From Psammoneis japonica (Eukaryota), in NCBI GenBank assembly GCA_008632985.1, contig QPGO01000033.1, positions 618,175 through 638,174 on the forward strand: a stretch of DNA of 20,000 bases, read 5' to 3'. Both the position numbers and the translations under genes were made by a program. Positions 1 to 20,000 of the stretch are shown piece by piece. Numbering within the stretch: the first letter of the stretch is position 1; each line of letters starts with the position of its first letter. The notes beneath the pieces were generated by a model that did no database searches, was not told where the DNA came from, and saw nothing but the letters and a program-made list of their open reading frames with translations.

Positions 1-1420
1 GGCCAGGGAAAGCTCGTGTGCTTCTGTCATGATGGATCAATGTAAACCAAAGTTGTTCTTTTTGTTCTGCAACATCAGAGTGCAGTGCAACAGATTGTCA
101 AGGCGCACCCGCACGTTGGCTGTGCTGTCAGCCAAATCAACACCATTTGCCGTTCACTCACTCGACAAATTACAAAGCTGATGATTCTTGTTGGCTGAAA
201 CTCTTGAGCTGCTTTTGAGACTTGACACAATGACCCACTTGTCCCATCCTTCACCCTCCACATTTCATCAGAGGCCGCAACACAGTGTTGTTCACTTTCC
301 TTTGTAAATTTTGGAACATTGAATTGCACAAAAGTGTGTCATCATTGTCCAACTTCAACAAAAATTTTAAGAGTCAAGTTGAATTTCTCATTTCCTTTTT
401 GTGTGTGCAATTGTTGCCTTTTTGTTTTGACCCAAATTTGCCAAAGACTTTCAATGCACATTTTGTCATCAAAAAATGAGTTTTGTTTTGATGAATTTGT
501 TGCACATTCATGGAAACGTCAACTTTGACAGTGCTTTTCAATGGCTCCACCGCAGTCTTGCGTGGCCCTGACAAAGAGAGAAGGGGCAGGAGGACTTGCC
601 GTGCCTGCCAATGTCAAGACTGCAAAGGACGTGGAGGCAAACATTTGTGTGAGCACCAGATGCATCCACAGTTGGGAAATCAACACTGCACTGCTGTCGT
701 GCCATTCAGCTAGACCAGCAATCACCAGCAAGAGTGACCATAAACTTGCCTTCTGTTGGCACAAAAAGCAAACATGCCCTCATGACAAGTGCACCCATTT
801 CCATCTCTCGCTGCTGTTTTGACTTTCGACCGGCATCCCAAGAGTGACACCATGGCCCGACGGCATCACGCAGCCCCTCGGCATTTCCACAGCCCCCCCC
901 CTTTCCCAAGGTCCATTGATGGCATTGTTGCATTGCAGCCCCTGCTCGCAGCTGTGATTTGTTGTGTGCTCTTCAGCAAAGTTGATTTTGTGTTCCCAAC
1001 ATCTGTCGATGGCGTCACCGTGGCCCAGCTCCTTGCCAACCGTGTGAGAATCAAGCAATGCCAACAGCAGCAAAAACACAGAAGGAGCTTTCACCCATTT
1101 TTGGACTTTCTCACCTCTGTTTTCTTGGACACACAATGTCAGAGTAAAATGTGGAATTGACCTGCATTGGCGTTGTTTGCAAGAGAAGGTTTGACGGCAA
1201 TGATCAAGCATCGGCTGCTTCTGCGCCATCATGGTGGTTTTTTGTGATGATTTTCTGCGCTGCGTTGTCTCACTTGAATGTGGAAAACTGTTTTGCATTC
1301 ATTGTTGCTTTGTTTCTACAAAGTTTGTGTCTTTTTCATGTTTGTTGGAGGCACACTAAAGAATCAGATTTTTTGCATCAAAACGAAGCATGACAACACA
1401 CACTTGGACTTGCAGCACTG

Positions 1421-1486
1421 AACTCTTTCTCCCTTCTTTTCCCTTTTCCTGTCTTCTCCTCTCTCTCTCCTCCCCTCCTCTTTTGT
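1421..1486 (+). repeat. CT-rich low-complexity pyrimidine tract (also at ~18153-18218)
   Basis: ctctttctcccttcttttcccttttcctgtcttctcctctctctctcctcccctcctctttt. Confidence 0.7.
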
Positions 1487-1921
1487 GTTCTGTCAATGAC
1501 ACCAAAAAATTGCCTTGTTTTCACCTGTGCCCACCAGTTTTCCAGTCAGCAGCTCCCTGCCTGCATTTTGGCACATTTTCTGCATGTGCAATGCTCTGCC
1601 CATTTCACAGCAGCGCACCCTCTCCCCAAAATGCATTTGACAAGAGGGTGTGCTGTTGTGTTGTTTGTCAGCAGCAGATCCTGAACCAATTTCATGGTGC
1701 TCACCTTTCGTCGCATGTTGCGAGACATCAGTTTGGAGTGAACTTTCCAATCGACAGATTCGCATGCTGGGTCAGACCATCTGCACTTCTCCTGCACATG
1801 TTGGATCAGAGCTGGGCTGGAAGCTTTGCAACGGAGAACTGATTTAAATTTCAAGCACACCTGAGCCGAAAAATGTCCGGAGAGACAGAAAAGGAACAGC
1901 AGAACCGCGTGCTTCTCCACC

Positions 1922-2673
1922 GTGACATCCAGGCAATGGCAGAATTTGTTCACACGATCATTGCCGGAGACAACCCAAATGATCCCACATCTGGTCAGCC
2001 TTGTTTCTGATTTTTACGTTGCAAAAGTCTCCAAAGTTTGATCAACGATCAAGCCCAAGACCTCCACAGTGCCCATTTTGTCACTGACATTGTCATGCGT
2101 CACGTTCAGTGCAAACCCAAGGACATGGACTGTCGGTTCCTGAAGATTTTCTGTCATGTCAATGCCCAAAAGGAATGGTGCCTCTTTGTCAACAGCTTTC
2201 CGGATGCATGCAATGCTGACGATCCTGGTTCCCAGGTGGATGAGATCAAGGGGTTCCTTGGTGACCCAACCGGCAACATCAAGAACACGGTGATGATGCA
2301 AGGCGATTCCCTTGCACGCCGGGAGGCTCATGAAGAAAAAATCAATTCCATGTTGAATCATGAATTTGAGAACCGTTGTCCCAAGGAGCAAAATGGCATC
2401 TGGCCTGGGCACAGCAAGCAGCTCACAATGCTTTGTTGCAGAATGCACGATCAGAGGGCCGACTGCTTGGAAGATGATGACAAACAACATTGCAAATCTA
2501 AAACCAAACGCAAAATTAAGAGGATCCGCAAAGATGGCACCTGTTTGTGCGATGGCAAGCAACCCGCCCACCTCCCACCTTTTGCCTTTCTGCCTGCATC
2601 TGTCATCTCAATGTCCCTTCTCACACTCCATGGTTGCACACGCCTCACCAGAGCCTTCCTTGACCGTCCCTGA
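1922..2673 (+). pseudogene. Decayed protein-coding-like segment of unknown family (second copy ~18655-19406)
   Basis: The frame reads like a natural globular protein (DIQAMAEFVHTIIAGDNPNDP...KSLQSLINDQAQDLHSAHFVTDIVMRHVQCKPKDMDCRFLKIFCHVNAQKEW...KTKRKIKRIRKDG). It has no Tyr, excess His/Cys and an in-frame TGA at 2008-2010. No family recognised. Confidence 0.35.
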
Positions 2674-3260
2674 CAAGAAGGCCAAGCCTGCATCTCACTC
2701 GAAACCAGCACCTCCTTCATTGTCTGGTGATGTGCCATTGTCTGGGGAGGGAGGAAGCGTTCCAGGCGCAGGTGGGAATCCGTGTGACATTGGGCCCGCA
2801 GAATTCTGCGTGCGAGCTCCGCAGTAAAATCACACGGCAATTAAAATGTGAAGTGCATCGTTTTTTACTCAGCCAGCTACATTCTTCAACCATTGAAGAG
2901 CGCAACTGGTGCATTGTTGTTTCCACAAATTCGTCACACAAAACATCTGGGGCTTCGCAAAACAGTGCTTCTGGACAATTTTTTAAAATGTCACATGTGG
3001 AAATGCATGTGCGAAACATGCGACGGATGACAAAAATCATTTGTGTCACACGTCAGTGCTGCGAGCTCCCACCTGGGGCTGAAACGCGTCGGAGGCGCGC
3101 CGGACTCTCACCGCTGACCTTCCGTCACTCTCAGAAATGATGGAAAACCAAAAACCTGCTCCCACCTCCAAAGGCCCTTTGTCCAAACTGCGTTCCTCTC
3201 CTCCGTCTGTTTCGGGCAAATCTTCCTGCAGTTGCGTCTCCTCCCAGCAACCCTGATGAC

Positions 3261-3725
3261 ATGTCGTGGCTGGACAAGTCCACACTCTGCAATCACTTTG
3301 ACCTGTCCAAGTGTCGGCCCGCCACCACCGAGGAAGTTGCTTCTCATTTGTCACACCTGCACATCATTGACAAAGCCACCAACACTGATCAGTTTCTTCG
3401 TCATTCCGCTGACTTTCACCTGGCAGACAACTTGCGGGAAAACTGGCACACGTTCTCAAACAATGCGCCTTCATGTGATTCCGCCACCGCATCTTGTGTC
3501 CGAACCAAGCACCCTCCTGACCTTGATCACTTCTCCAAGGAACTCTCCATTGCCAGACAAGCCAACTCTCTGTGCAAAGGGCACTTTGGGTGCATTCGTG
3601 TGTGCATTCCTGCCCTCCTTGGAGAGAGTGAGCTGCGGGATGAATTTGCAGCGGGTGCGTTTGATGATGCAAAACTGGTCATGGACAGGGGAGACGTTTC
3701 GACATTGGACACATTCCAGGTCTAG
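3261..3725 (+). pseudogene. Possible decayed coding segment, unknown family
   Basis: 154-aa Tyr-free ORF with protein-like composition (ALLGESELRDEFAAGAFDDAKLVMDRGD). No recognisable motif. Confidence 0.25.
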
Positions 3726-4638
3726 GTGGGACCTCACACTGCTGAACTGTGACATCGACAGTTTTTTGAATCGCGTCGTGTGTCGCGCACGTACATTTCT
3801 GCGTGATGTTGGCAAAATTTTGCATGATTTTATGGTGCAATCATCAGGCGATCCATTCAACAACTTTTAATGTTTTTTCCTTCTACGCCATTCTCGAGTG
3901 TCTTAAGAATGGCGTGGGGCAGGCGCGCTGTCCAAAACTTTGAGTGCGAACAGAGACATGTGTGCTGCAAACTTGGCCGTTCATTTTGTGTCGAAGACAA
4001 ATGTGTCCATTGACCAAAGTAAGAAATGCAGAGCTCGCACGCAGAATTCCATGGGGCGAATGTCACAAAAAGTCCCACCCAGGACTGGAGCCCGTCATTG
4101 AGACAGAAGTCAAGTGTCAGCTTGCCAACTTGTGGAATGGATGAGACAGGCACTTGTGGACCGTTGGGAGAAACATCACCAAGGGGAGGCACTTGTGGAC
4201 CATTGATGGACAAAAAGGGCATTGTTTGCGATGCATTGATGCTGGCAAAGTGGTTCCAGCGTGACATCTTGCAAGACCACCCTGAAAGACTGTGGTTCTG
4301 TGAGGAAATGGAGTTCTTCCTGTTGTCTCCAAGGACAGTCAATGAATGGACACTGGATTTAATTGCAGAGGAGGAGGATGAGCAGGAGAACTTTCACAGC
4401 AGGAGAGAGGAAATGCGTTGGGTGGAGAGATGACGGCGCGCCAAAGTTAACGAATTTGTGAGATTTGCCGGAGCGGAGACGAGGGCTTTCATTTGCATGA
4501 CTGATTGTTTGGACATTGGGCAATGCAGCAGGTTTAGAGCCACAAGGTTAGAGGGGGATGACAAAGTGGGTTGGAAAAAACGATTTGGCGCCAAAAAGGA
4601 TGGATGTGCTGCAGCCCCACCAGCAAACCAGAATGTCA

Positions 4639-4938
4639 TTAAAGCATGTGTGGGGTTTGTTCATTGTGGCAAAAATGACTTTTACAGGCACACGTTTTCA
4701 CAATGTTTTGAGCAAAATGCTTGTGCATGCTGTCAACAGCATGGAAGTGGATTTTGACATTGCAGCAACAGAGAGGTTTGAACTGGAATTTGCATGGATT
4801 CGAAATTTTCAAAAGATGACAAGGAATGGCAAAATTGTTGAATCATGCACACATCAAAAGATTTGGCTAATTCTCGATTGTGCTGCAATTGAGAAAAGAG
4901 AATCATTGATGAAAAGCATCAGATTTTCAGTGTTAAAG
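4639..4938. repeat. ~295-bp AT-rich dispersed repeat, copy 1
   Basis: ttaaagcatgtgtggggtttgttcattgtggc...agattttcagtgttaaag matches 5307-5606. Confidence 0.9.
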
Positions 4939-5064
4939 AGAGGTTTGAAAATTTCCCAATGGTGAAATGAGCTGGGGAACCAAGGCATGGAGCCACCCAC
5001 AATTGGCAACAGTGGCACAGGCTCAACATGAAAAAGAGCACGGTCACTCAGGCGATCAAGAACA

Positions 5065-6166
5065 TTGCAATGGCTGGCAAGTGCACCCATGTTTGCTGAA
5101 GTCGTGTTGACAGACAACAAAGCCAAGGGGATGCGTGGTCAGAAGAAACCGGCAGCGAGAGGCAAAGGAGGGAAGAAGAGCAAGAAGAGGAAGAAGAGCG
5201 ATCAGACAGCAGATGAAGAGCCGTTCCTGGTGACTTGGGAGGAGGAGACAGTGATGACGATTGTGGAGGGCAAGCGCAAGAACAAGGGAGCGCATGCTTG
5301 GTTCTGTTGAAGCATGTGTGGGGTTTGTTCATTGTGGCAAAAATGACTTTTACAGGTGCACGTTTTCACAATGATGTTTTGAGCAAAATGCTTGTGCATG
5401 CTGTTGACAGCATGGAAGTGGATTTTGACATTGCAGCGACAGAGAGGTTTGAGCTGGAATTTGCATGGATTCGAAATTTCCAAAAGATGACAAGAATGGC
5501 AAAATTGACAAAACACACACATTGAAAGATTTGGTTGATTCTCAATTGTGCTGCAATTGAGAAAAGAGAATCATTGATGAAAAGCATCAGATTTTAAGTG
5601 TTGAAGACGATTGTGGAGGACAAGCACAAGAACAAGGAAGTGCATGCTTGGTTCTGCAAAAACGTCCTGAAACTCACGAAGAGCACCACGGGTGAGACGA
5701 AGGCAGCCGGTCTGGCCACAGCAGGTGACGAGGCTCTGGGTCTGTTGATGCTGGAAAACTGCTGGAAGAGTTGGGAGCACAAGGCCCATCATGACAAGAC
5801 TGTTGGAGCTGGGGGGGCTCAGACGAAGAGGATGAGGAAGAGTCGGAACCAACACCCAAGCACATGGACCCGTCGAGGCAACGAGACTCATGGAAGGATG
5901 CAGGGACATTGCGATTCAATGAACTGCTTGCAGAAGTGAAGAAAGACAGGTTGAGTGAGGAGGGCATGCAGTTCGACACATGGTGCAGCGAAGGCAAGAA
6001 AAGGAAGAGTGATGAAAGAGGCAAGGGATCAAAAAGAAAGAAAAAGCCAGTGGGGAAGGAGGCAAGAACACAGGCAACGACAGAGCTTTCAAGTGACAAC
6101 AAGGAGAAGGAGGAAGAGGCAACGGACAAGAACAGAGGAGACAAGGACAGCAAGGAAGAGGATTGA
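5065..6166 (+). pseudogene. Interrupted, frameshifted gene for a charged protein; probably a transposon-associated hypothetical protein
   Basis: ORF pieces 5065-5310, 5598-5939 and 5864-6166 join into ...HAWFCKNVLK...TAGDEALGLLMLENCWKSW...SWKDAGTLRFNELLAEVKKDR..., followed by a Lys/Glu-rich tail. The DEA-x-LL-x-LEN-x-W and W-x3-G-x2-RFNEL-x3-V-x2-DR pattern resembles repeat-associated hypothetical proteins of diatoms (from recall, not searched). Confidence 0.45.
5307..5606. repeat. ~295-bp AT-rich dispersed repeat, copy 2, inserted in a decayed ORF
   Basis: ttgaagcatgtgtggggtttg...agattttaagtgttgaag, flanked by a 55-bp duplication (5252-5306 / 5602-5656). Confidence 0.9.
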
Positions 6167-7023
6167 GAAAGCGATGAGGGAAGCAAGACGAACGCAGATG
6201 CAGATGATGAGCGAGCTGCGGCACGAAAATGCAGTGGAGGCTTTTGTTGGTGTGAGAATGGAAAGCGGGTGAGCAGCACATCAGCGTTCAATGCAAACAG
6301 TTGTGGGGTTCTACGAAGCATTTTGATGGTCATTGTTGCATGATCCAAACTTTCATTTGACAACCAGTGTTCACAATGGAAGGTTCCTCAAACCCATGAA
6401 ATGCAATGATCAGCATTGACTTGTCATCAGACCAAACGTTTTGAATTTCGCATTGAAAAGGTAAAAAGGGACGGCATTCTGACAGTCAAGGGTTGGATCC
6501 CATGGGACAAGGTGGGTTCCCATGGTGAAAAATTGCACACTGTGACATGTGACAAAAAGCCACAGTCCACACAACTGTCAAGGATTGAAGCCTTGACACT
6601 CGTGCCTGTGACGGCAGCAAAAATCACCTGTGAGAAGGGTGGCCAGGATTGCTGCAATTTGCACTCTGACGTTGTTGCGCTGGCTGACAAACAGTGCAAA
6701 TGAGTCACATGTTTCTGGGTCACATGCTGCCTTGCAGCCAAAAGAAGCAATCTTTGCCTTTAGAGCCACCATGATGCACTGGTCTGCCAAATCAAACTCC
6801 GCATCACCATGGACAGTCGGGGAGAAATGTTGTCAAAACTGCGCGATGATGTGTTTGAGCTCTTGAGAGCTCACCCAGCTTGAGACATCATGGCTCCAAG
6901 TTGCCATGTTTGTCGTGAACTCTTCCTGATGCTGTGTCTGTGACTTGGCTTCGTCGTTCAATTGCCGTGGCCATCGCACTTCAGAGGCGACATTCTTGAC
7001 AAGAAAAAGTGTCTCTGGGACAC

Positions 7024-7242
7024 TGACAGGATTTGATCAAGATTGACCAACTCGACCAAATCCGACCCAACGACTTGAAAAATGCGACACCCAGGATTCG
7101 AGCCCAGGCCATCAAGTGACTGGTTGCCAACCAAACCATTCACAGTGCAGCTCAAGTCGAGAGGCTTTTTGCACACAGCAGCTGGATGTGTTTCAGCCAG
7201 AGAGTGACATGCCGGCATTCAACTCTTCTTTGAATTCTGTCA
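7024..7242 (-). repeat. TRIM LTR (3')
   Basis: tgacaggatttgatc...gaattctgtca. Confidence 0.88.
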
Positions 7243-7679
7243 CTCCCCATGTGTCACGAATCTGTCTGATGTGGCTGTCCCTGAATCGCCCCCACAAGGT
7301 TTCTAAGTCACCCAGGATCATTCGGACGGGCAGGTTGAATCGCTCCTCTCACAAAGCTCCGCTGCTGTCAAGGGACCCACCCACATCTTCCGTGCCGGAG
7401 TTGAAGACAGGGCTCAAACATGGACTCTCGCCGCAGTGCATGGCACTCCCTGCAGTGCGCCGATGTCGACTGCATTGCTGACAGATTCCAAGCTCCCTGG
7501 GCAATTTTTCGCGCCCCCCTCATTCAAAGCATGCTGAGCGGCTGCCCTCTGCACACCGGCAACACCCCATTCTGCCCCGACGGCTTCACAGGGGCTTCCC
7601 GACAATGCTGTCCCCCCGAGGCAGGCATGCCCCGTTTTTGAGACAGAGAGATGCGCGCGTCACTCTGAGAATCACGCCA

Positions 7680-7897
7680 TGACAGGATTTGATCAAGATT
7701 GACCAACTCAACCAAATCCGACCCAACGACTTGAAAAATGCGATGCCCAGGATTCGAGCCCAGGCCATCAAGCAGCCGGTTGCCAACTGGACCATTCGCC
7801 GCACAGCTCAAGCTGAGAGGCTTTTGCACACAGCAACTGGATGTGTTTCAGCCAGAGAGTGACATGCCAGCATTCAACTCTTCTTCGAATTCTGTCG
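7680..7897 (-). repeat. TRIM LTR (shared middle)
   Basis: tgacaggatttgatc...gaattctgtcg (terminal CA changed to CG). Confidence 0.88.
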
Positions 7898-8320
7898 CTC
7901 CCCATGTGTCACGAATCTGTCTGATGTGGCTGTCCCTGAATCGCCCCCACAAGGTTTCCATGTCACCCAGGATCATTCGGACGGGCAGGTTGAATCGCTC
8001 CTCTCACAAAGCTCCGCTGCTGTCAAGGGACCCACCCACATCTTCGATGCCGGAGTTGAAGACAGGGCTCAAACATGGACTCTCGCCGCAGTGCATGGCA
8101 CTCCCCACAGCGTGCCGATGTCGACTGCATCGCTGACAGATTCCAAACTCCATGGGCAATTTTTTCATGCCCCCCTCATTCAAAGCATGCTGAGCGGCTG
8201 CCCTCTGCACACTGGCAACACCCCATTCTGCCCCGACGGCTTCACAGGGGCTTCCCGACAATGCTGTCCCCCCGAGGCAGGCATGCCCCGTTTTTGAGAC
8301 AGAGAGACGCACGCGTCACT

Positions 8321-8335
8321 GTGAGAATCGCGCCA
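8321..8335 (-). promoter_or_regulatory. Putative primer-binding site of the TRIM (second copy 7665-7679)
   Basis: Minus strand TGGCGCGATTCTCAC directly after the LTR; TGG is complementary to the tRNA CCA end. The tRNA identity was not determined. Confidence 0.65.
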
Positions 8336-8554
8336 TGACAGGATTTGATCAAGATTGACCAACTCGACCAAATCCGACCCAACGACTTGAAAAATGCGAT
8401 GCCCAGGATTCGAGCCCAGGTCATCAAGCAGCCGGTTGCCAGCTGGGCCATTCGCCGCGTGGCTCAAGTCGAGAGGCTTTTTGCACACAGCAGCTGGATG
8501 TGTTTCAGCCAGAGAGTGACATGCCGGCATCCAACTCTTCTTCGAATTCTGTCA
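8336..8554 (-). repeat. TRIM LTR (5')
   Basis: tgacaggatttgatc...gaattctgtca. Confidence 0.88.
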
Positions 8555-9497
8555 GACACCTCGCGACAACGGAGACCCTGCAGAACAAAAGAGCAGCACA
8601 GAAAGAGAAATCGCGCGTGAGCCAAACGGTCACAAGCACGCAAAGCCCCGACAAAACACACAGCATGAATGGCAACGCACAAGGTTGGTCGTGATGCAAC
8701 AGAAGTGACGTTGTCAATGCGAGCCTTCAGCAAGAATTTTCACCATGATCCACCCACATGAACCTGGGTGTTCTCGACCTTGTCTCGCAGAAGATGACGC
8801 AATGTGCCAAACTCCGTTGAGAGCATCCAGGTTCCGACCTCAGAGATGATCGCATTTTTTGGCTTGGCAAAACACCATTGTTCGTGCTGTTTTGCGTGTC
8901 ATTTTGAGCCATGAGCCAGAAAACACTCCCAAAAACTGTTCTGCAGGGTGAAGTGCACTGAGTCTGCACAGATTTGGGCTGTTCCAGGCTGCGCAGAAAG
9001 TGAGCGGGCCAAAAACTCTGGTGCACCCACTCAAACACATTCGACAACTGACTGACAACAGATCGGTTGACTGGCTTCCCAAAGCGCCACTTGTGTTGTG
9101 CCCTTCCCCAGCTGCTCTCCGGCTGGTGCCATGGAGTGCAGTCGTTCAATTTAGATTGTGCCTGCAACATCATTTGCAACAAACGTGACTGCCACTTTTC
9201 ACACATTGTCTGCCAAACAGGTGTTGGCTCCAGCTCATGTGTCTCAGTGCAACCCACCACGTGGCTTTCCTCATCCCCCAACCCATTGCCCCCCTCCTCC
9301 ACTTTCCTGTCATGCTCTGCCACAATCTTCCTGCAAAAATCCTCCCTCTTGCGTTTCCTGGGTGCGCTCCCTTCCGCGTCTCCGTTCTTGGAGTTCCCTG
9401 CCATGAAAAGCTTCAGGCGTCTCACGCACTTTCTCCTCTTTGCCCCGCGCTCTTCATCGGGCAGGTTCTTGTTGTTCTGCAGCTCTGTGGTGACCAG

Positions 9498-9962
9498 CAA
9501 AATGGCCAAGGGCACAAAATCAAAAAGGACAAAAAATGTCTTTTGAGGGCGCCAAATCACAAAGGGCACAAACCAGGCAGGGGCACAAAATTGCTGTCAC
9601 AAAATGGCTGAGGGCGCAAAATGGTGGCTGAGGGCACAAAGCTGCCAAGGGCAAAAAATCAGAAAGGGTCCAAAATGGCAAAAGGCACAAAACCACAATG
9701 GCCAAAAATTGCTGAAGGCACAAAATCATGAGGGGCACCAAATGCGGCTGAGGGCCCAAAACCAAAAAAGGCACAAAATGGCAAAGGGCACAAAGTCACA
9801 AAGGGCGCAAAATGGCCAAGGGCACAAAACCACGAGACAGGGCAAAGTGCTCAAGGGCACAAAAAAAGGAAAGGGCACAAAGCAGCCAAGGGCACAAAAA
9901 GGTCAAGGGCACAAATCAAGAATTGCGCAACATGGCTGAGGGCACAAAATCTCAAAGGTGCC
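9498..9962. repeat. Degenerate minisatellite built on the motif AGGGCACAAAA (units ~20 bp)
   Basis: About 20 recurrences of ggcacaaa/ggcgcaaa interleaved with aaatggccaa/aaatggctga. Confidence 0.85.
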
Positions 9963-10308
9963 ATGCCAAATGCGAAAATGCAAAATGCGAAAATGCAAAA
10001 AAAATGCGAAATGCGAAAATGCAAAAATGCGAAAATGCTGAAACAAAATGCGGAAACGCGGAAATGCGAAAATGCGGAAACGCGGAAATGTGAAAATGCG
10101 GAAATGCAAAAATGCGGAAATGCGAAAATGCGGAAATGCGGAAGTGCGGAAATGCGGAAATGCGAAAATGCCCAAACGCGGAAATGCGGAAATGCGAAAA
10201 TGCAGAAATGTGGAAATGTGGAAATGCAAAAATGCAAAGAAATGCAGAAATGCAGGAATGCAGAAAAACACGAAAACACAGAAATGTGGAAATGCAAAAA
10301 TGCAAAAA
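9963..10308. repeat. 8-bp satellite (GAAATGCG / AAAATGCG)n
   Basis: About 40 degenerate units, e.g. gaaatgcg gaaatgcg aaaatgcg, with variants gaaacgcg, gaaatgtg, aaaatgca, gaaaacac. Confidence 0.93.
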
Positions 10309-10336
10309 GGGTCAGGCTTGGGTTTGGGGTTGGGGC
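10309..10336 (+). repeat. Degenerate telomere-like hexamer tract
   Basis: ggg tcaggc ttgggt ttgggg ttgggg. Each hexamer has CA or TG where TTAGGG has TA; two also differ at the last base. Confidence 0.45.
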
Positions 10337-10349
10337 TTGTTTCTGAATC

Positions 10350-10908
10350 TTTGGCACATGACATCTTGTCTGTCAACATGACAATGTTTTTTGTGTGTTG
10401 GTTTCACGACAAGGTGTTGTGTCCAGCAAATGTCCATCAAAGTGCTGTGGCGGTGTTTCAAGCTCAAGACAAAATTGGTTGGAGACAGATTTTCAATGGG
10501 CGCTTCTCATCTTTGTGGAACAAAGCTCAGCCATCATGCTTGCTGTCAACTGGATTGTGCCGCTCCTTGTTGAACATGGAAAAGCACCCAGATTGGGCCA
10601 CTGCGATTGGCCGTTTTGTGTGGCCCCAATGGCGGGAACACTCCATGATGACACTGCACATGGGCACAATTTGGGCACAAGAAAGTCCTCACAGCACCGT
10701 GACGCCAAGGCAGAAGCATGAGCCATCCATTCCAAGGCAGACAATTGTTCAGCTTGCAATCGATCCAAGTTGCTCAGTTCAGTGGAGGAGCACCTCACTT
10801 GTTTGACCCACAGACTGTGCAGCTGGTTGGCCATGGCTCGACCAATGTTCAAGTCAAGCATCCGCGAAGCCTGGCGTCTGGCAGTGAGGGGCACTGGCGC
10901 CATTGCAA
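10350..10908 (+). mobile_element. 5'-truncated, decayed non-LTR retrotransposon (C-terminal region); continues at 16403-16471
   Basis: AQDKIGWRQIFNGRFSSLW...W...IGRFVWPQW / DTAHG...SVEEHL...SWL...PMFKSSIREAWRLAVRGTGAIA resembles the Q-x2-IGW-x2-F-x-GR-x-S-x2-W C-terminal region of diatom LINE-like proteins (from recall). The frame resumes in phase after the Copia. Confidence 0.6.
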
Positions 10909-11084
10909 TGAGCAATTCACGCCGCAGTCTCTGGGAATTTGACAAGATGCGACAGAAAATGTTGGCGCGGCAATCAACAGGTTCCAGAAAATTGCAAGGT
11001 TGTTCTGTGCCACCCTCTGTGTCAGCGACAGTGATGGTCTTCGCCAAATGCCATGTTCAGCGACAGTGTGGCTGCACTCACTCA
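10909..11084 (-). repeat. Copia 3' LTR
   Basis: TGAG...CTCA inverted termini; aligns without gaps to 16227-16402. Confidence 0.92.
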
Positions 11085-11094
11085 GTCCCCTCGA
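11085..11094 (-). promoter_or_regulatory. Polypurine tract of the Copia
   Basis: Minus strand TCGAGGGGAC directly before the LTR start TGAG. Confidence 0.65.
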
Positions 11095-11303
11095 ATGGAC
11101 ACCAGCTTTGGCAGGATCAATTCGACCCTGTGCATCCACGTTGCCGGCCCTTTCCAGGCCAGTTCAAAAAAAACATGTCTCGGGATGGGCAAAACCATCT
11201 CCATTTTGGAAATGGAAAATCCCGGTTCGTCTGCAAGACGAAGCAATCAGTGGCGCCACAGCTGCATTGGGCTCGGGTGTTTTGCCCGCCACTGGAATCA
11301 CAA

Positions 11304-11621
11304 TCACCACAAAATGTGATGAGTTGACTCCCGGAGCCTCGGTCCGGGCATCAACTTGGTGAGAACGTCAGCGAGATTCTTCTCGCCATCCTCCCAAGCA
11401 ATGCGCACAATGCCAGCAGCCTGCGCCTCATGCATCCGGTGACAAGCAATGGCACTGTGCTTCTTTTTGAGTGTCGACTCGGGCCGCATTGAGTTCTCAA
11501 ACACGGCCTCATTGTCACAGAAGACGTTGATGGAGCCATCGATGGGAGCACCCATCATGCGAAGCTTGTGTCGAAAGGCCTCGATCTGCTCCACGGCAAT
11601 TTTCATCGCAACAAATTCCAC
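11304..11621 (-). pseudogene. Copia RNase H, C-terminal part
   Basis: EFVAMKIAVEQIEAFRHKLRMMGAPIDG..VFCDNEAV..N...PESTLKKKHSAIACHR..EA.AAG.......GEKNLADVLTK. Confidence 0.93.
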
Positions 11622-12981
11622 ATTCCTGAAAACGTGATTGATTGAAGGTCAGTTCCGTGTCATCGAACACCATCGCTGACCTGGCATGTGCCTTCAAACA
11701 GGCAAAGATGTGAAACACCTCATCCAGGTGCCCAACCCTTGGCACTGCCAAGCAAGAAGACAGAAGAGAGACTGGCGCTGCAATGTCAGTGCGCCCCAGT
11801 TCCACCACCCAACACAAAACGCCAATGAGTCCCTGGAAACAAGTCGCCCTTCGGGCATCCAGCTCAGGTGCAGCGTCAAGTTCAGGGTGATGCCCCAAAC
11901 TCAATGGCGTTGCGACTCTCTTCTTGAGTCCCCGGCCTGCACGGCCGAGTTCAAACTCAATGTTGGCAGCGGCCCACTGGACACACAAGTCAGGTGCAAG
12001 GGCCCAACGTGTTTTGCCGTCCGAGTCAGATGGTTGGAACTTCTTCACTTCGGCACCCAGGTGCTCTTCCGGTTCCTTGACGCTTCCCTCTTTTGGCACA
12101 TGTCTCAAAGCCATGTAATCCATGAACTTCTGGGGTTCATGCGAGACAACCAGCAGGTCATCTGCATGTGCAAGCATGCATTCCCAGCACTTGAAGCCAT
12201 CCAGCTTGGCATTCTTGTGCATCCACACATCGGGATCACCCTTGCCACAGGTGAATCCCACGAGCCTTGGCGTTGCTGCCACATGTTCCCTAAAAGCAGC
12301 GCCGGAACTCTTCAGTCCGCACAGGGCCCTGACAATTTCAACGGGTCGACCGACACTCTGCTTGCCAAAGTCCAGGCCAGCAATTGTGCAACAGCACTCC
12401 TTCATTGGTGCATTCAGACGAGCATTCTGAATGTTGGCACACATGACTTCCAAGTCATTCAGAGCTGCTGTCGTGTGGCCTCCAGCCACGTGTTGCACTT
12501 TCCTGTTCAAGTCCAACTTGATGTCAAACACCAAGTGGCACTTAATTTCCTTGTGTCCCATCTGGTCATCATCGACAAATTCGAAGGCTGGCATTGCATT
12601 GCGCATCTCCTTCTCAATTGCATTTCCCCGCAGGTCAAGCCCAGACTGTTCGTCCAGCATCAAGGCCTGCTCCACGGATTTTGGCAATTCGACACCGAAT
12701 TTGTGAGTGCGCTTCCAGCACCTGGTCTTGACTTTCATGACCATCCTGGCATGACGACGCAACATGTCTCGAACCCACCAGTTGAACGCTGGCTCACCAG
12801 CCATCTCATTTGCAACAGCATGCTCCGTGACTTGGACAGGGAATGATTCTTTTGCCTCCGACAAAGGGAGCCAACTAGAGCTTCCATCTTTCCACTCAAA
12901 CTGTGTGTCCCAGTCAATTGTCGTTCGGCGGGGCCTGCGCGTGCCACTCTTTGTGACAAAGAAACCATCATCTTTGTGCAC
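11622..12981 (-). pseudogene. Copia reverse transcriptase (RVT_2 type) and upstream linker
   Basis: WKDGSSSWLPL..KES.PVQV.EHAVAN..EPAFNWWV, KFGVELPKSVEQAL, CHLVFDIKLD, VAGGH, RALCGLKSSGAAFR, DPDVW, HADDLL (normally YVDD), GRTDI. Confidence 0.95.
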
Positions 12982-13790
12982 TGCGCATGCGTCACTTTGG
13001 TGACCTGCAATCTCTTTGACAATTTGGCAAGATCGTCCCTCCCCACAAACCTGGGAGCAGATGTTCTCAGCAAATTAAATTGGCTGTGAACGTGTCGGCA
13101 GATCTGTCTGGGAACTCTACCTCGCAAAGCCGTGAATCCAGGACAGGCTTTTTGTGCCGCTTCCCTGTCTGATTTCCATCCGCACCGCGCTGCATTGGCA
13201 TCTTCCTTGCCAAATGGGTCTTCGGGTGGTTCTGGGAACTTGTCATTCCCTTCCTGACCATCCCCTGGCCTGAGTTTCAGACTGGCATCGAGATGCTCAA
13301 TCTTTTGCCAAATCGCATTGGTCTTCAAGTCATCCTCAGGCAGAGCCCACACATCCTTCCAAATGATGGGTGTGCCTGATTCAGGTGGGATCACAAATGC
13401 CATGTCATCTGCACAGTTTTCTGTGACACCTGACCAGCGCCCGATGCACTTCCTTTCAAAGGGAAATTTTGCCTGAGGCATCATAAAGTGCACCGGCTGG
13501 CACCAGTCAAAGAGGGCATGAGCTGAGACGTCTGGTGTTGAACCCGTGATGTCCTCTTTGGGGACTTTCCCATCCATTTCCGGATGCTCAGAGGCCGCGA
13601 GCCTCCTGACAGCCATGGCCCACTTGGCACAGCAGGACCAGCAGCGTTTTGGCGCATTCGTGCGCCTTGTTGCAATCCGCACTTTCTTCTTCAGCTCACG
13701 AATGGAGGCTTCGGCCAAGTTCTGCCGCAGACTGCAAGGAACAGCAACCCCTTGTTTGATCCGGCACCCCAATGATTCGTAATGGGATCC
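12982..13790 (-). pseudogene. Copia integrase C-terminal remnant
   Basis: PCSLRQNLAEASIRELKK (cf. EPYSPWQNxAExxIRELK), TGSTPDVSAHALFDWCQPVHF, IGRWSGV; frameshifted. Confidence 0.85.
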
Positions 13791-13849
13791 GGACCTTGGA
13801 GTCTGGGAAGGCAATTGAATGAGTGCTGGAGCTGCCAAACTGCTTTGGC

Positions 13850-14140
13850 ACATCATGCACCGTCAAGCCGTTAGCATGGAGCTGATTGGGACATGTCAGT
13901 GAGTGTTCATCCTGTCCCCAATGTGCATGGCCTCACTCAAGATGAGGAGGTGTGGCTGACCAGAACTCGGGTCAACCCAGACAGCAGCAACCATCTGCAT
14001 CGGGATGTTGTTGATCGGGTCGCATTCACTGGAATGTGGATGTGCAGTGACAGCACGAGAGGGGTCAGAGAAGGGAACACAGCTGGATCCTGCAATGCAT
14101 GTGTCGGCATGCATGTCCAGCTTGTTGAAAAGGGAGTTGT
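13850..14140 (-). pseudogene. Copia aspartic protease region
   Basis: LDMHADTCIAGSSC (cf. the CoDi-type ELDSHADTCxxG), followed by DPSSGQPHLLILSEAMHIGDRM. Confidence 0.85.
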
Positions 14141-14300
14141 GGCCTGCATCAGTGTCGACTGAAGCTGTGCATCTCAAGGATTTAGCGAAAGGCACAGACA
14201 CATTTCCATTGGTGCAGACAGAAGCAGCATCACAAGAATTGATTTTAGACTCCATTTTAACTTCTACAAGGTTGTTGTCCTTGCTCATTGGCGCAACCTT

Positions 14301-15590
14301 TCATTCCTTTTTCTTGGCTTCCGCAATGCTTGCAGCCGCAGGCTTGTGCGCTCTGCGCCCAAACTGATTCCCAGCATCGGCACCCCCTTTTTCCTTTGAG
14401 GTTTTCTCCTTTTCAACGTCCTTGGGATCAGCAACCGTCACCTTGGAATGTTTCCTCAGAGGTTCTTCGGTTGCCTTTGTTTTCAGAGCAGCAGCTCGGC
14501 GCTTCTTCTCATGCCTCTTCTTCTCCCGAAGCTCATTGACTTTGGCCTTCTCCTCTTGGTTGAGGTCATCCCATTCTTCCTTGGGACAATGGCCTGCCCT
14601 GATCCGGGGCTTGTCTTTCACCTTGCCTTTTCCCTGGCCTTGGTTCCTGTTCCTGGCGTTGTCCCGTTCCAATGCCGCAATCTGGCGGTGATCCGTTGCC
14701 CGATTCTTTGAGTTCTCAACCAGTGTCTTCATGTGCTGTTGACACAACTCAAAGCTGGAGAGTTTTGCCTTGTCGCTGTCTGCGACGCTCTTTCTGGTCT
14801 CCAACCTTGGGTCCGTGATTCCCTTCAGGAAATCTGAGACCTTCTTGGTCTCTGCCACCAGCTCATGCTGGTTGAATGCATGACGACCGCGCCCAGCGCA
14901 TTTTGCGGCAGTGATCTGAGCATGCATGCGGCTCTTGAGTGGTTTGATCAAGGCCCACCCTGGCCCATCAATGATCAGCTTTTTCAAGAGATCACAAACC
15001 TGCTTGCTGTCAGTGTCATGCAAATTCCCTTGATGGATCGTGGCAGCGTCAAGGTCCTTGTCGACGTTCGAATGAGTGGCATTGCGCACCTCATTGTTGA
15101 CTTCCGAAGTCTCGCGAACAATGCACAAAAGTGGAACGCCCGCAACTGCATTACGGCGGTGCTGGAGCTTGGTCCCAAACAGCTCATCCCAATTGTAAAA
15201 ATCGTGCATCTGACTCAGAGGTGCAGTGCTTGGGGAGTTGTCGTCTGATTTGTCCTTCTGGATGTTCGACAATTCACTCAGACACTCTGTTCAGCAAGTG
15301 ATTGCAGCGTCGTTGAAAGCTTGGGCCTGCCTTGGCTGTCCACGTGTCGTTTGACAATCCAGAAAAGCTCAAAATGCCTTGAACTTCCTGATCAAAAGGT
15401 GTGGGAACTGCACAGCTGGGTTGTCAACAGTGTCCTTGATGAATCCCTTGACCATGTCTCCGACCTCAGACAGTGGGATTTGGTGGCAGGAATCAGCATC
15501 GGTGATCCCTTGCACCACAACATGGGCCCTGGTGGCATCGTCAAACCCAGTCCGGGTGAGGGCTGCATCAAAAGCGACAGCGGCAGCCAT
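14301..15590 (-). pseudogene. Copia gag, frameshifted
   Basis: MAAAVAFDAALTRTGF...QGI...FPHLLIRKFKAF, GVPLLCIVR, DSKQVCDLLKKLIIDGPGW, ETKKVSDFLKGITDPRL, CPKEEWDDLNQEEK. Lies between the 5' LTR and the protease. Confidence 0.8.
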
Positions 15591-15658
15591 TGTGCAGTCA
15601 AAACAACCCCGTCAGAGGCACGACATGCGTGTGTGCGTGTTTCGTTTCGATTTTCTCA

Positions 15659-16155
15659 CGCCAACGGCAAAAGTTGGCTCTGCCAATGACATTGAAACCG
15701 GCAAATTAATGGAGTGTCAATTTCCTCAACAACTCCACACTCAACATGTCCCAGTGCACATCAGCATTGCGCACACATTGAATTGTTTCCAATGATTAAT
15801 TTCCGTTGTGCACTGCTCAGGTCCAACGAGTGAACTGTGTTCACATTCACAACTGTGTCACATTTGCAGCGAACAATTTCGATTGAAGTGAGGTCATGGT
15901 GTGTCTTTCCATTGTGCATTTGGCGCGCGATCGCCAATGGCAAAAGTTGGCTCAACCAATGACATTGAGACCGGCAAATCAACGGAGTGTCAATTTCCTC
16001 AACAATTCCATGCTCAACACATCCCAGTGCACATCTGCATTGCGCGCACATTAAATCATTTCCAACGATTGATTTCCGTTGCACATTGCTCAGGTCCAAC
16101 AAGCGAGTTGTGCTCACATTCACAACTGTGTCACATTTGCAGTGAACAATTTCGA
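15659..16155. repeat. Tandem duplication (224 bp x2, period 273) in the Copia 5' leader
   Basis: 15659-15882 matches 15932-16155 (cgccaa(c/t)ggcaaaagttggctc...gaacaatttcga). Confidence 0.92.
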
Positions 16156-16212
16156 AAGAATGGCCGCCATGCCATTGCCCATTCCAGGCTGCAGAACAAA
16201 GAGAGACGTCAT

Positions 16213-16223
16213 TGGCTCTGACA
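16213..16223 (-). promoter_or_regulatory. Putative tRNA-iMet-like primer-binding site
   Basis: Minus strand TGTCAGAGCCA, 3 nt after the 5' LTR, matches the canonical (TGG)TATCAGAGCCA except TA>TG. The TGG itself is not conserved. Confidence 0.55.
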
Positions 16224-16226
16224 AAG

Positions 16227-16402
16227 TGAGCAATTCACGCCACAGTCTCCAGGAATTTGACAAGATGTGATGGAAAATGTTGGCACAGCAATCAACAGGT
16301 TCTAGAAAATTGTGAGGTCATTCCATGCCACCCTCTGTGTCAGCAACAGTGATGGTCTTTGCCAAACACCACACTCAGCAACAGCATGACTGCACTCACT
16401 GA
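16227..16402 (-). repeat. Copia 5' LTR
   Basis: Aligns without gaps to 10909-11084; the terminal ctca is ctga here. Confidence 0.92.
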
Positions 16403-16471
16403 GCAAAATGTTTTGGCACAACATCGTCTCAGGGTGATGCCAACCAAGGACGTGCAAAACCAACAAGTTGA
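16403..16471 (+). mobile_element. Remainder of the interrupted non-LTR element ORF
   Basis: Removing 10909-16402 and one copy of GCAA gives att gca aaa tgt ttt ggc... = IAKCFGTTSSQGDANQGRAKPTS*, with the stop at 16469-16471. Confidence 0.55.
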
Positions 16472-16727
16472 CTGCAATGTAAAAAGTTGACTCCATCATG
16501 ATGCTCCATTTAAGAGGGCGGTCCAGAGACAGCCCGCTGCACTTTTTGCACAGAAACTGCACGAGAGCCAAGCACGTGCATTCCTGCACAGACGCAGCAC
16601 AAAAACAGAAAGCATGGCATGCCCATCAGCAACTCACGACAACACCACGTGATGACCATGCATCAAAATGGAGTCGTCCACATCTCTTTCTGCAGCTCCT
16701 CTTTCACTTGCTCGATTGCTCCAAAAG

Positions 16728-19700
16728 GGCCAGGGAAAGCTCGTGTGCTTCTGTCATGATGGATCAATGTAAACCAAAGTTGTTCTTTTTGTTCTGCAAC
16801 ATCAGAGTGCAGTGCAACAGATTGTCAAGGCGCACCCGCACGTTGGCTGTGCTGTCAGCCAAATCAACACCATTTGCCGTTCACTCACTCGACAAATTAC
16901 AAAGCTGATGATTCTTGTTGGCTGAAACTCTTGAGCTGCTTTTGAGACTTGACACAATGACCCACTTGTCCCGCCCTTCACCCTCCACATTTCATCAGAG
17001 GCTGCAACACAGTGTTGTTCACTTTCCTTTGTAAATTTTGGAACATTGAATTGCACAAAAGTGTGTCATCATTGTCCAACTTCAACAAAAATTTTAAGAG
17101 TCAAGTTGAATTTCTCATTTCCTTTTTGTGTGTGCAATTGTTGCCTTTTTGTTTTGACCCAAATTTGCCAAAGACTTTCAATGCACATTTTGTCATCAAA
17201 AAATGAGTTTTGTTTTGATGAATTTGTTGCACATTCATGGAAACGTCAACTTTGACAGTGCTTTTCAATGGCTCCACCGCAGTCTTGCGTGGCCCTGACA
17301 AAGAGAGAAGGGGCAGGAGGACTTGCCGTGCCTGCCAATGTCAAGACTGCAAAGGACGTGGAGGCAAACATTTGTGTGAGCACCAGATGCATCCACAGTT
17401 GGGAAATCAACACTGCACTGCTGTCGTGCCATTCAGCTAGACCAGCAATCACCAGCAAGAGCGACCACAAACTTGCCTTCTGTTGGCACAAAAAGCAAAC
17501 ATGCCCTCATGACAAGTGCACCCATTTCCATCTCTTGCTGCTGTTTTGACTTTCGACCGGCATCCCAAGAGTGACACCGCGGCCTGACGGCATCACGCAG
17601 CCCCTCGGCATTTCCACAGCCCCCCCCCCCCCCTTTCCCAAGGTCCATTGACGGCATTGTTGCATTGCAGCCCCTGCTTGCAGCTGCAATTTGTTGTGTG
17701 CTCTTCAGCAAAGTCGATTTTGTGTTCCCAACATCTGTCGATGGCGTCACCATGGCCCAGCTCCTTGCCAACCGTGTGAGAATCAAGCAATGCCAACAGC
17801 AGCAAAAACACAGAAGGAGCTTTCACCCATTTTTGGACTTTCTCACCTCTGTTTTCTTGGACACACAATGTCAGAGTAAAATGTGGAATTGACCTGCATT
17901 GGCGTTGTTTGCAAGAGAAGGTTTGACGGCAATGATCAAGCATCGGCTGCTTCTGCGCCATCATGGTGGTTTTTTGTGATGATTTTCTGCGCTGCGTTGT
18001 CTCACTTGAATGTGGAAAACTGTTTTGCATTCATTGTTGCTTTGTTTCTACAAAGTTTGTGTCTTTTTCATGTTTGTTGGAGGCACGCTAAAGAATCAGA
18101 TTTTTTGCATCAAAACGAAGCATGACAACACACACTTGGACTTGCAGCGCTGAACTCTTTCTCCCTTCTTTTCCCTTTTCCTCTCTTCTCCTCTCTCTCT
18201 CCTCCCCTCCTCTTTTGTGTTCTGTCAACGACACCAAAAAATTACCTTGTTTTCACCTGCACCCACCAGTTTTCCAGTCAGCAGCTCCCTGCCTGCATTT
18301 TGGCACATTTTCTGCATGTGCAATGCTCTGCCCATTTCACAGCAGCGCACCCTCTCCCCAAAATGCATTTGACAAGAGGGTGTGCTGTTGTGTTGTTTGT
18401 CAGCAGCAGATCCTGAACCAATTTCATGGTGCTCACCCTTTCGTCGCATGTTGCGAGACATCAGTTTGGAGCGAACTTTCCAATCGACAGATTCGCACGC
18501 TGGGTCAGACCATCTGCACTTCTCCTGCACATGTTGGATCAGAGCTGGGCTGGAAGCTTTGCAACGGAGAACTGACTTAAATTTCAAGTTCACCGAAGCC
18601 GAAAAATGTCCGGAGAGACAGAAAAGGAACAGCAGAACCGCGTGCTTCTCCACCGTGACATCCAGGCAATGGCAGAATTTGTTCACACGATCATTGCCGG
18701 AGACAACCCAAATGATCCCGCATCTGGTCAGCCTTGTTTCTGATTTTTGCGTTGCAAAAGTCTCCAAAGTTTGATCAACGATCAAGCCCAAGACCTCCAC
18801 AGTGCCCATTTTGTCGCTGACATCGTCATGCGTCACGTTCAGTGCAAACCCAAGGACATGGACTGTCGGTTCCTGAAGATTTTCTGTCATGTCAATGCCC
18901 AAAAGGAATGGCGCCTCTTTGTCAACAGCTTTCCGGATGCGTGCAATGCTGACGATCCTGGTTCCCAGGTGGATGAGATCAAGGGGTTCCTTGGTGACCC
19001 AACCGGCAACATCAAGAACACAGTGATGATGCAAGGCGATTCCCTTGCACGCCGGGAGGCTCATGAAGAAAAAATCAATTCCATGTTGAATCATGAATTT
19101 GAGAACCGTTGTCCCAAGGAGCAAAATGGCATCTGGCCTGGGCACAGCAAGCAGCTCACAATGCTTTGTTGCAGAATGCGCGATCAGAGGGCCGACTGCT
19201 TGGAAGATGATGACAAACAACATTGCAAATCTAAAACCAAACGCAAAATTGAGAGGATCCGCAAAGATGGCACCTGTTTGTGCGATGTCAAGCAACCTGC
19301 CCACCTCCCACCTTTTGCCTTTCTGCCTGCATCTGTCATCTCAATGTCCCTTCTCACACTCCACGGTTGCACACGCCTCACAAGAGCCTTCCTTGACCGT
19401 CCCTGACAAGAAGGCCAAGCCTGCATCTCGCTCGGAACCAGCACCTCCTTCATTGTCTGGTGATGTGCCATTGTCTGGGGAGGAAGCGTTCCAGGCGCAG
19501 GTGGGAATCCGTGTGACATTGGGCCCGCAGAATTCTGCGTGCGAGCTCCGCAGTAAAATCACACGGCAACTAAAATGTGAAGTGCATCGTTTTTTACTCA
19601 GCCAGCTACACTCTTCAACCATTGAAGAGCGCAACTGGCGCATTGTTGTTTCCACAAATTCGTCACACAAAACATCTGGGGCTTCGCAAAACAGTGCTTC

Positions 19701-20000
19701 TGGACAATTTTTTAAAATGTCACACGTGGAAATGCACGTGCGAAACATGCGACGGATGACAAAAATCATTTGTGTCACACGTCAGTGCTGCGAGCTCCCA
19801 CCTGGGGCTGAAACGCGTCGGAGGCGCGCCGGACTCTCACCGCTGACCTTCCGTCACTCTCAGAAATGATGGAAAACCAAAAACCTGCTCCCACCTCCAA
19901 AGGCCCTTTGTCCAAACTGCGCTCCTCTCCTCCGTCTGTTTCGGCAAATCTTCCTGCAGTTGCGTCTCCTCCCAGCAACCCTGATGACATGTCGTGCTGG
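16728..20000. repeat. Copy 2 of the large direct repeat (runs off the window)
   Basis: Near-identical to 1-3273. Confidence 0.97.

Follow-up and report, generated by a model that had tools for sequence, protein, structure and literature searches.

Near-complete loss of TpA from a repeat-rich stretch of diatom-like DNA is consistent with TpA-specific A:T>G:C hypermutation

Introduction

Only for one alga, the chlorarachniophyte Bigelowiella natans, has targeted A:T>G:C hypermutation of chromosomal DNA so far been described, in a preprint of 2026 (Mettrop et al., bioRxiv 10.64898/2026.01.13.699255). According to the main text of that preprint, 231 of the 302 nuclear mutations in mutation accumulation (MA) lines fell in integrated nucleocytoplasmic large DNA virus (NCLDV) and virophage sequences; 230 of these 231, scored from Illumina data, were A>G or T>C, and all lay at TpA according to the authors. 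The rate, reached in some lines only, was ~6e-7 per site per generation. The same genome holds 124 clusters that show TpA depletion and CpA+TpG enrichment, and 324 predicted coding sequences with a mean TpA frequency of 0.0018 that are enriched for reverse-transcriptase and DDE domains. From structure prediction only, the authors propose an ADAT2-like DNA adenine deaminase. Here we analyse 20,000 nucleotides of the Psammoneis japonica assembly GCA_008632985.1 (contig QPGO01000033.1, positions 618,175 to 638,174 of the forward strand), referred to below as the window. It carries a Copia/CoDi-like long terminal repeat (LTR) retrotransposon, satellites and a large direct repeat, and TpA (here also written TA) has almost vanished from all of it.

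Three better-known processes share some of these properties. Fungal repeat-induced point mutation (RIP) converts CpA/TpG to TpA, raises AT content and is triggered by duplication. In direction it is the opposite of the change in the window, which runs from TpA to CpA/TpG. The two are nevertheless alike in being dinucleotide-specific and near-saturating, in killing transposons, in leaving long open frames filled with missense changes and in involving the same four dinucleotides (for background on RIP, see PMC7296669). The APOBEC3 and ADAR enzymes of animals resemble the process proposed below in that deaminases drive hypermutation against mobile or foreign nucleic acid, and ADAR has a 5' U preference; they act on cDNA and RNA in strand-coordinated clusters, whereas the window points to hits on chromosomal DNA that post-date integration and fall on either strand, one site at a time. 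Decay of 5-methylcytosine at CpG has, like the TA process of the window, a palindromic pyrimidine-purine (YpR) target and yields TG or CA according to strand, but it cannot remove TA or make Cys and His codons from Tyr codons.

In full-text literature searches, neither TpA erasure nor A>G hypermutation was seen reported for diatoms, and in a term search of the main text of the B. natans preprint, without its supplements, LTR, Copia, CpG, tyrosine and diatoms were not mentioned. A first-pass annotation, made by a model from the letters of the window, had suggested an A>G process at TpA, possibly repeat-directed, and knew of no description of such a system in diatoms; beyond diatoms, one is now given by the preprint (bioRxiv 10.64898/2026.01.13.699255).

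Results

TpA is depleted throughout the window

The window contains 77 TA steps against 1251.2 expected from its base composition, an observed/expected ratio (o/e) of 0.06. In 200 mononucleotide shuffles the mean was 1252 (standard deviation (sd) 25.5) and the minimum 1172. All 20 of the 1-kb bins were depleted (o/e 0.00-0.13), and the longest run without TA was 2964 bp (9152-12116). The depletion is confined to TpA, as the whole-window o/e values of AA (1.30), GA (1.02), AT (0.89) and TT (1.32) show. TG and CA are in excess (1890 against 1172.9 expected, o/e 1.61, and 2084 against 1329.4, o/e 1.57, respectively), and CG is reduced (720 against 1246.2, o/e 0.58). The interior of the retrotransposon and the remainder of the window are affected equally (19 TA against 317 expected, o/e 0.060, and 58 against 929, o/e 0.062). 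The depletion reported in the first-pass annotation, which was said to hold for retroelement, satellites and non-retro sequence alike, is thus borne out, and its hand counts were exact on recounting by program: 18 TA in 1-3300 (222 expected), 15 in 11085-15600 (249.5 expected) and 1 in 7024-8554 (75.8 expected). For comparison, 80 related retrotransposon loci from metagenomes (the relatives) had TA o/e values of 0.48-0.93, with a median of 0.69, roughly ten times that of the window.

The reading frames are affected accordingly. Among the 54 stop-to-stop frames of at least 120 residues, 49 have no Tyr and the other five have a single one. TGA triplets (441 on the plus and 494 on the minus strand) outnumber TAA (46 and 39) and TAG (12 and 21) together by about eightfold, and open reading frames are inflated because two of the three stop codons have vanished.

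Conserved tyrosine codons give the direction of change

Tyrosine is encoded by TAY codons only. Conserved Tyr columns therefore polarise the change, since a Tyr can be written in no other way. In the first of two tests the 519-residue reverse transcriptase (RT) frame of the retrotransposon was aligned with 29 homologs, and a column was scored as Tyr if at least 70% of the homologs had Tyr there. None of the 19 conserved Tyr residues was kept: they are now Cys (10), His (6), Arg (1), Phe (1) and Leu (1), so that 16 of 19 became TGY or CAY, while 209 of 268 conserved columns of other residues were retained. The second test used the long frames of the 80 metagenome loci as the comparison set and gave the same picture. 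Of 18 conserved Tyr none was kept (TGY 9, CAY 5, CGT 1, TGG 1, TTY 2), against 281 of 354 (~79%) for the other conserved columns.

The changed conserved columns (n = 91) can be sorted by the smallest change that accounts for them. A single TA>TG or TA>CA step explains 27 and a single CpG step explains 16; the rest comprise 12 other transitions, 17 transversions and 19 columns that need at least two changes. The TA-type changes are not restricted to Tyr, as 13 of them affect other residues and include I>M (ATG), V>A (GCA), L>S (TCA) and L>P (CCA), while the CpG-type changes include R>H, R>C, R>Q and R>W. As the Tyr codons were lost and ~79% of the other conserved residues kept, the element must have arrived with normal Tyr codons and then changed at TA and CG much more than at other sites. 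The codon evidence thus shows TA>TG and TA>CA to be the direction of change, in agreement with the earlier proposal of A>G at TpA on either strand (TA>TG on the top strand, TA>CA on the bottom). That proposal had also allowed for TA>CG where both strands were hit; this outcome proved rare, with one CGT among the 18 Tyr columns. Nor is a CG product expected of a hit that strictly depends on TpA, since after one hit neither strand reads TA.

Strand choice and the flanks of surviving TA steps

TG and CA outcomes alternate along the RT gene, with 9 runs among 15 sites compared to 7.7 (sd 1.6) expected. Their ratio at the Tyr-column sites, 10:5, does not depart from 1:1 (p = 0.30). There were no strand-coordinated clusters among these 15 sites, and strand-coordinated processive deamination, considered as a candidate, was rejected on the number of runs.

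The 77 surviving TA steps are unevenly distributed over flanking contexts: TTAA 22, GTAA/TTAC 23, CTAA/TTAG 15, CTAC 8 and CTAG 5, with only 3 that have a 5' A or a 3' T. Survival was estimated relative to the numbers of each TA context that 20 kb of the 80 relatives would hold. As this baseline was drawn from transposons of other organisms, and the large repeat makes about 15 survivors count twice, only the extremes are to be trusted. The values were 0.41 for TTAA, 0.14-0.20 for GTAA, CTAA and CTAG, 0.08 for CTAC/GTAG, 1 of ~68 for GTAC, and 3 of ~522 for all ATAN and NTAT contexts pooled. Virtually no TA with a 5' A or a 3' T remains, and of all contexts TTAA resists best. An enzyme put forward as a candidate must show this preference.

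LTRs and repeats of different age give the timing

The two LTRs of a retrotransposon are identical at insertion. Those of the window differ at 28 of 178 positions, and the differences comprise 8 doubles (TG in one copy and CA in the other), 7 CG against TG/CA, 1 TA against CA and 4 of other kinds. Since these differences lie mostly at TA and CG, the divergence must mostly have arisen after insertion, independently in each LTR.

The two copies of the large direct repeat (~3.3 kb each within the window) behave differently. Their 50 mismatches comprise 29 CG against TG/CA, 4 TA against TG/CA, only 2 TG/CA doubles and 13 others, and 15 residual TA steps (of 18 and 16) are common to both. About 160 ancestral TA sites are expected in one such copy (the relatives have ~49 TA per kb), and had these been converted independently, about half would now be discordant. 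Doubles number 8 in 178 bp for the LTRs and 2 in 3278 for the 3.3-kb copies (Fisher p = 1.7e-9). Repeat pairs of intermediate divergence have 5 doubles in 657, 1 and 4 in 219, and 4 in 240. Expressed against background divergence, the density of discordant pairs is 0.06% at 0.4%, ~0.5-1.8% at 1.7-6.7%, and 4.5% in the LTRs. From these comparisons we infer an order of events in which the element inserted, TA was erased, the 16.7-kb repeat formed, and CpG decay continued.

The repeats also bear on a trigger of the RIP type. As the conversions are common to both 3.3-kb copies (only 2 pairs in 3278 are discordant, and 15 TAs are shared), the 16.7-kb duplication did not trigger them. The LTRs differ, yet the internal region of the retrotransposon, which is single-copy in the window, is depleted equally. 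In addition, RIP raises AT, whereas the process in the window raises GC (0.50 compared to a median of 0.48 in the relatives).

CpG decay is a second process

Relative to the pooled o/e values of the 80 relatives, the window has lost 814 TA and 425 CG and gained 497 TG and 582 CA. TA thus accounts for about two thirds of the TG/CA excess and CG for about one third. TG and CA are abundant, as the first-pass annotation stated, but not all of this abundance comes from TA, as about one third of the excess matches the loss of CpG. Overall, CG is not the ancestral state at most TG and CA sites; had it been, this would, by the same annotation, have spoken against its proposal. CpG decay is a real second process in the window, and it leads among the youngest differences. 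Its signs are the CG o/e of 0.58, the CG against TG/CA class of mismatch between the 3.3-kb copies (29 of 50), and the 16 CG-type changes at conserved RT columns. The 29 mismatches also suggest that CpG (5-methylcytosine-type) decay is active in the region.

The retrotransposon

Coordinates of all features are collected in Table 1. Searching the window by tblastn with the long open reading frames of the 80 related loci placed all 287 of 287 high-scoring segment pairs (HSPs) in the internal region, on the minus strand. Along the element they fall in the order protease, integrase remnant, RT and RNase H, with integrase upstream of RT. A phmmer search with the RT frame found 676 homologs (best E 4e-173) at a best identity of 54-56%, and all 120 of the 120 listed carry PF07727. 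Among the matches listed, the named homologs belong to two diatoms, Fragilaria crotonensis and Fistulifera solaris, apart from two proteins labelled as from bacterial metagenome-assembled genomes, and the closest 90% cluster includes F. crotonensis proteins. No protein near-identical to the RT frame was found in a collection of 5.8 billion proteins (best 54-56%). Pfam RVT_2 was not detected in the frame even at E<=10, whereas a 56%-identical relative (P0001) scores 63.7 bits.

The element shares with diatom Ty1/copia (CoDi-like) elements the PF07727 homologs, the 178-bp LTRs, TG...CA-ended in the left copy, and the order gag, protease, integrase, RT and RNase H. It differs from them in being dead, with no conserved Tyr, frame changes, most of the integrase core missing and a best identity of 54-56%. 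On these features it is described here as a dead Copia-type LTR retrotransposon. Its right LTR, unlike the left, ends in TGA, and as a target-site duplication the flanking TGCAA and GCAAA agree only in part. Relative to its homologs the element lacks about 270 residues of the integrase core, at 13763-13765 (minus strand); in L011_o0, residue 163 abuts residue 439. A stretch that adjoins the 5' LTR at 16210-16226 (minus strand) resembles a primer-binding site for initiator transfer RNA (tRNA), with TG where the canonical site has TA.

Table 1. Features of the window, with strand and particulars
Feature	Position	Strand	Particulars
TpA-erased domain, continuous	1..20000	.	TA o/e 0.06; no edge within the window
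Direct repeat copy 1, period ~16.73 kb	1..3272	+	extends past window start; 3216/3278 columns identical to 16728-20000
Gene-like frame of unknown function, Tyr-free	2011..2670	+	one distant homolog, P0183 (E 1.7e-5, exhaustive search)
668-bp repeat, two diverged copies	4639..5974	.	purine-rich on +
656-bp tandem repeat, 2.3 copies	7024..8554	.	1 TA
17/34-bp and 8-bp satellites	9498..10308	.	TA 0 in 811 bp
3' LTR of Copia/CoDi-like retrotransposon, 178 bp	10909..11086	-	TG...CA ends; pairs with 16227-16404; 28/178 positions mismatched
Retrotransposon internal region: gag, protease, truncated integrase, RT, RNase H	11087..16226	-	several frame changes; integrase core mostly missing
Open RT frame, 519 residues	11518..13074	-	Tyr 0.2%, Cys 4.6%, His 4.4%
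Gag-like frame, 329 residues	14304..15290	-	sole Pfam match weak DUF5726 (E 0.0042)
273-bp repeat, 1.8 copies	15659..16171	.	between 5' LTR and gag
5' LTR of Copia/CoDi-like retrotransposon	16227..16404	-	CG 1 vs 8 in other LTR
Direct repeat copy 2, 16.73-kb period	16728..20000	+	extends past window end

Other features of the window

The window spans 1.2 units of the 16.73-kb-period repeat, and the copies are 98.1% identical. The repeat could be a true tandem or segmental duplication, or it could be redundancy in the assembly. The gene-like frame at 2011-2670 has a possible first exon starting from an ATG near 1873, and the arrangement recurs at about 18600-19403. Standard homolog searches with this frame and with the frame at 8730-9596 gave no match. 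In the alignment of the former with its single distant homolog, P0183, six Tyr of the homolog stand opposite C, T, H, A, C and C; Cys or His is thus found at 4 of 6 (binomial p = 0.002). These losses point weakly the same way as those of the retrotransposon. P0183 itself (446 residues) has no Pfam family and no Atlas neighbour. The frame at 1873-2670 may be a gene, now dead, that belonged to some other mobile or foreign element.

The plus strand is strongly skewed towards purines over 4001-7000 (in 5001-6000: A 319, G 313, C 174, T 194); the 668-bp repeat lies in this region, as does a minus-strand frame of low complexity that is rich in Ser and Leu. The satellite units at 9498-10308 (unit AAATGCGG) vary mostly by CG/TG/CA. 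Searches for host-gene features in the window found no tRNA (ARAGORN) and no Rfam family at E<=1, and Pfam searches of 24 and then 100 frames gave only the weak DUF5726 match.

Discussion

Comparison with the hypermutation of B. natans

The window shows both sequence-level marks of the B. natans phenomenon, in that the changes are A>G/T>C transitions and are confined to TpA. As described in the main text of the preprint, the B. natans changes likewise occur only at TpA and give TpG or CpA by strand, clusters that include reverse-transcriptase genes have lost TpA and gained CpA and TpG, and degraded genes lose their annotation, as does the RT of the window, which is invisible to Pfam. There are also differences. 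With an o/e of 0.06 over at least 20 kb the window approaches saturation, whereas in B. natans the NCLDV region has a Rho of 0.45 and the virophage region is undepleted. B. natans has viral inserts as targets, and those of the window comprise an LTR retrotransposon, satellites and a large repeat. The window has CpG decay alongside, a measurable flank preference and a diatom-affine element, while CpG is not mentioned in the main text of the preprint. Finally, mutation in B. natans was seen de novo in living lines, whereas here the history is ordered from LTRs and repeats alone. Overall, the window probably records a process of the same kind in a second algal lineage.

Proposed explanation

We consider it probable that a TpA-specific A:T>G:C hypermutation like that of B. 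natans drove this repeat-rich, diatom-like nuclear DNA close to saturation. Each TA step would be struck independently on either strand and become TG or CA; a converted site, no longer being TA, would then be immune, and CG would almost never result. The hits would have fallen after insertion of the retrotransposon and nearly all before the 16.7-kb repeat arose, with ordinary CpG (5-methylcytosine-type) decay running in parallel and supplying about one third of the TG/CA excess. The process may be directed at silenced, repeated or foreign DNA and may serve in defence. The actor may be a DNA-acting adenine deaminase of the TadA/ADAT2 kind, which would turn A into inosine, read as G.

A bolder version, which we offer tentatively and believe somewhat less readily than not, is that a genome of the diatom lineage has a dedicated enzyme system whose target is TpA in double-stranded chromosomal DNA, best at ATA/TAT, and that together with CpG methylation it would bring both palindromic YpR steps in silenced repeats to TG and CA. 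Such a system might be a widespread, possibly ancestral 'reverse-RIP' defence of algae of the SAR group (stramenopiles, alveolates and Rhizaria).

Alternative explanations

The depletion could arise in reading out or assembling the sequence, if the real DNA had normal TA and a modified base at TpA, or the processing, made the sequencer or consensus report TG or CA. A miscalled modified base such as hydroxymethyluracil was initially the favoured explanation, and was downgraded after the analysis of repeat ages and in the light of the preprint. That the depletion is far beyond any of the 80 related loci would suit such an error, as would the several frame changes in the retrotransposon, and the CG against TG/CA differences between the near-identical copies (29 of 50) could be methylation-linked miscalls. 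Moreover, the sequence was found in only one small DNA sequencing run (141 million letters, 0.46 of sampled words), with next to none of it in two runs from the same sample, and no RNA sequencing run containing words of the window was listed. Against an error of this sort, the outcomes are clean: TG or CA stands at 14 of the 18 Tyr columns, together with one TGG that needs a second change and one CG, and TA at none. From one site to the next they also alternate (9 runs among 15 sites), where a long-read consensus following the strand majority would give long runs. Stochastic error predicts mass discordance between the 3.3-kb copies, in which 2 doubles were seen in 3278, and error determined by context predicts concordant LTRs, in which 8 were seen in 178 bp; at least one of the latter lies within identical flanks (8 nt upstream and 17 nt downstream). 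The density of doubles climbs with the background divergence of the repeat pair, as it would for a process that depends on time, and the same signature has been documented with Illumina data in another alga, according to the main text of the preprint (bioRxiv 10.64898/2026.01.13.699255). We regard an artefact as unlikely, a shade more so than either of the next two alternatives.

A mutational or repair bias of the whole genome would need no targeting, as every TpA would mutate fast, neutral DNA would become poor in TA and only selected Tyr codons would survive. CpG decay offers an analogy, as does E. coli, in which very-short-patch repair depletes CTAG. Such a bias accommodates the equal depletion inside and outside the retrotransposon (0.060 and 0.062), the inclusion of satellites and unassigned sequence without a boundary in 20 kb, and the fact that nothing in the window is demonstrably under selection. 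It sits badly with an element that had all its Tyr on entry and has retained 79% of its other conserved residues. With at least 16 of 18 Tyr gone, compared to 4 background differences in 178 bases of LTR, TA would have been lost at hundreds of times the background rate. Since the formation of the 16.7-kb repeat few TAs have disappeared (4 TA against TG/CA, 15 shared), and a burst, or a saturating, context-limited process, fits this better than a steady rate; hypermutation was also local and episodic in the one documented case, B. natans, as its main text describes it (bioRxiv 10.64898/2026.01.13.699255). We think an untargeted bias unlikely, and put at the same low level the possibility that the hypermutation is real with a different chemistry. 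The thymine of TpA could be oxidised by an enzyme of the TET/JBP type to 5-hydroxymethyl- or 5-formyluracil, giving T>C, or an error-prone polymerase could act at TpA. 5-Formyluracil mispairs with G. Sequence does not separate adenine deamination from thymine oxidation, as TA is self-complementary: a TA>CA change read on the opposite strand is TA>TG, A>G and T>C look alike, and the flank preference (5' A / 3' T) is equally symmetric. An error-prone polymerase of the Pol eta type, which the first-pass annotation had listed as a candidate, was rejected, as its WA>WG signature should deplete AA and AA is enriched (1.30). For thymine oxidation, literature pairing 'diatom' with hydroxymethyluracil, judged by titles and the openings of abstracts, gave no evidence of thymine modification in diatoms (12 of the 15 papers listed concerned dinoflagellates, the others sleeping sickness, protist culturing and drug resistance), and the B. 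natans authors favour an ADAT2-like enzyme, in the main text on structure prediction only (bioRxiv 10.64898/2026.01.13.699255). Least credible by a wide margin is editing of the retrotransposon RNA or cDNA by enzymes of the ADAR/APOBEC kind before integration. ADAR-type enzymes favour a 5' U, as the preprint's main text states (bioRxiv 10.64898/2026.01.13.699255), and edited retroelements are described in animals (PMC4866542). We rejected it because the two LTRs differ, so that the hits post-date integration, both strands were struck with alternating outcomes, and satellites and flanks are depleted as much as the element (0.062 outside, 0.060 inside). The change is, besides, A:T>G:C and not the C>T of APOBEC.

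Several observations count against TpA-specific hypermutation, or against parts of it. TG/CA doubles can also come from an ancestral CG deaminated on opposite strands, and the 8 LTR doubles exceed the ~4.4 expected from ~8.8 ancestral TA sites. All 7 of the 7 CG against TG/CA differences between the LTRs are one-sided, with CG kept in the left copy (8 CG against 1) and lost in the 5' LTR. The 16.7-kb repeat may stem from redundancy of the assembly; the step 'before duplication' would then fall and the LTR step alone stand. The single run that contains the sequence may be the assembly's own source. No deaminase gene is present within the window. TpA-erased relatives numbered 0 among the 120 best protein homologs of the RT frame and 0 of the 80 metagenome loci, all of which have TA o/e of at least 0.48, although both peptide patterns used in that scan contain Tyr and so bias it against erased copies; a metagenome scan with the window's own peptides gave no confirmed relative. 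The window also shows no edge of the depleted domain.

Significance

We judge the footprint of hypermutation to be probably real and an artefact improbable, and interest is high provided that independent reads confirm it. If the host is a relative of diatoms, this second case would mean that TpA hypermutation is not a curiosity of Bigelowiella, that it can reach completion, and that it also acts on retrotransposons and satellites. Beyond the preprint, the window adds a test of polarity (Tyr to Cys and His codons), a test of timing (LTRs against later duplicates) and a flank preference. Hypermutated elements of this kind escape annotation based on Pfam or other domains. Should the tentative reading of a 'reverse-RIP' defence in SAR algae be true, its action would be recognisable in any assembly by Tyr-free transposon frames.

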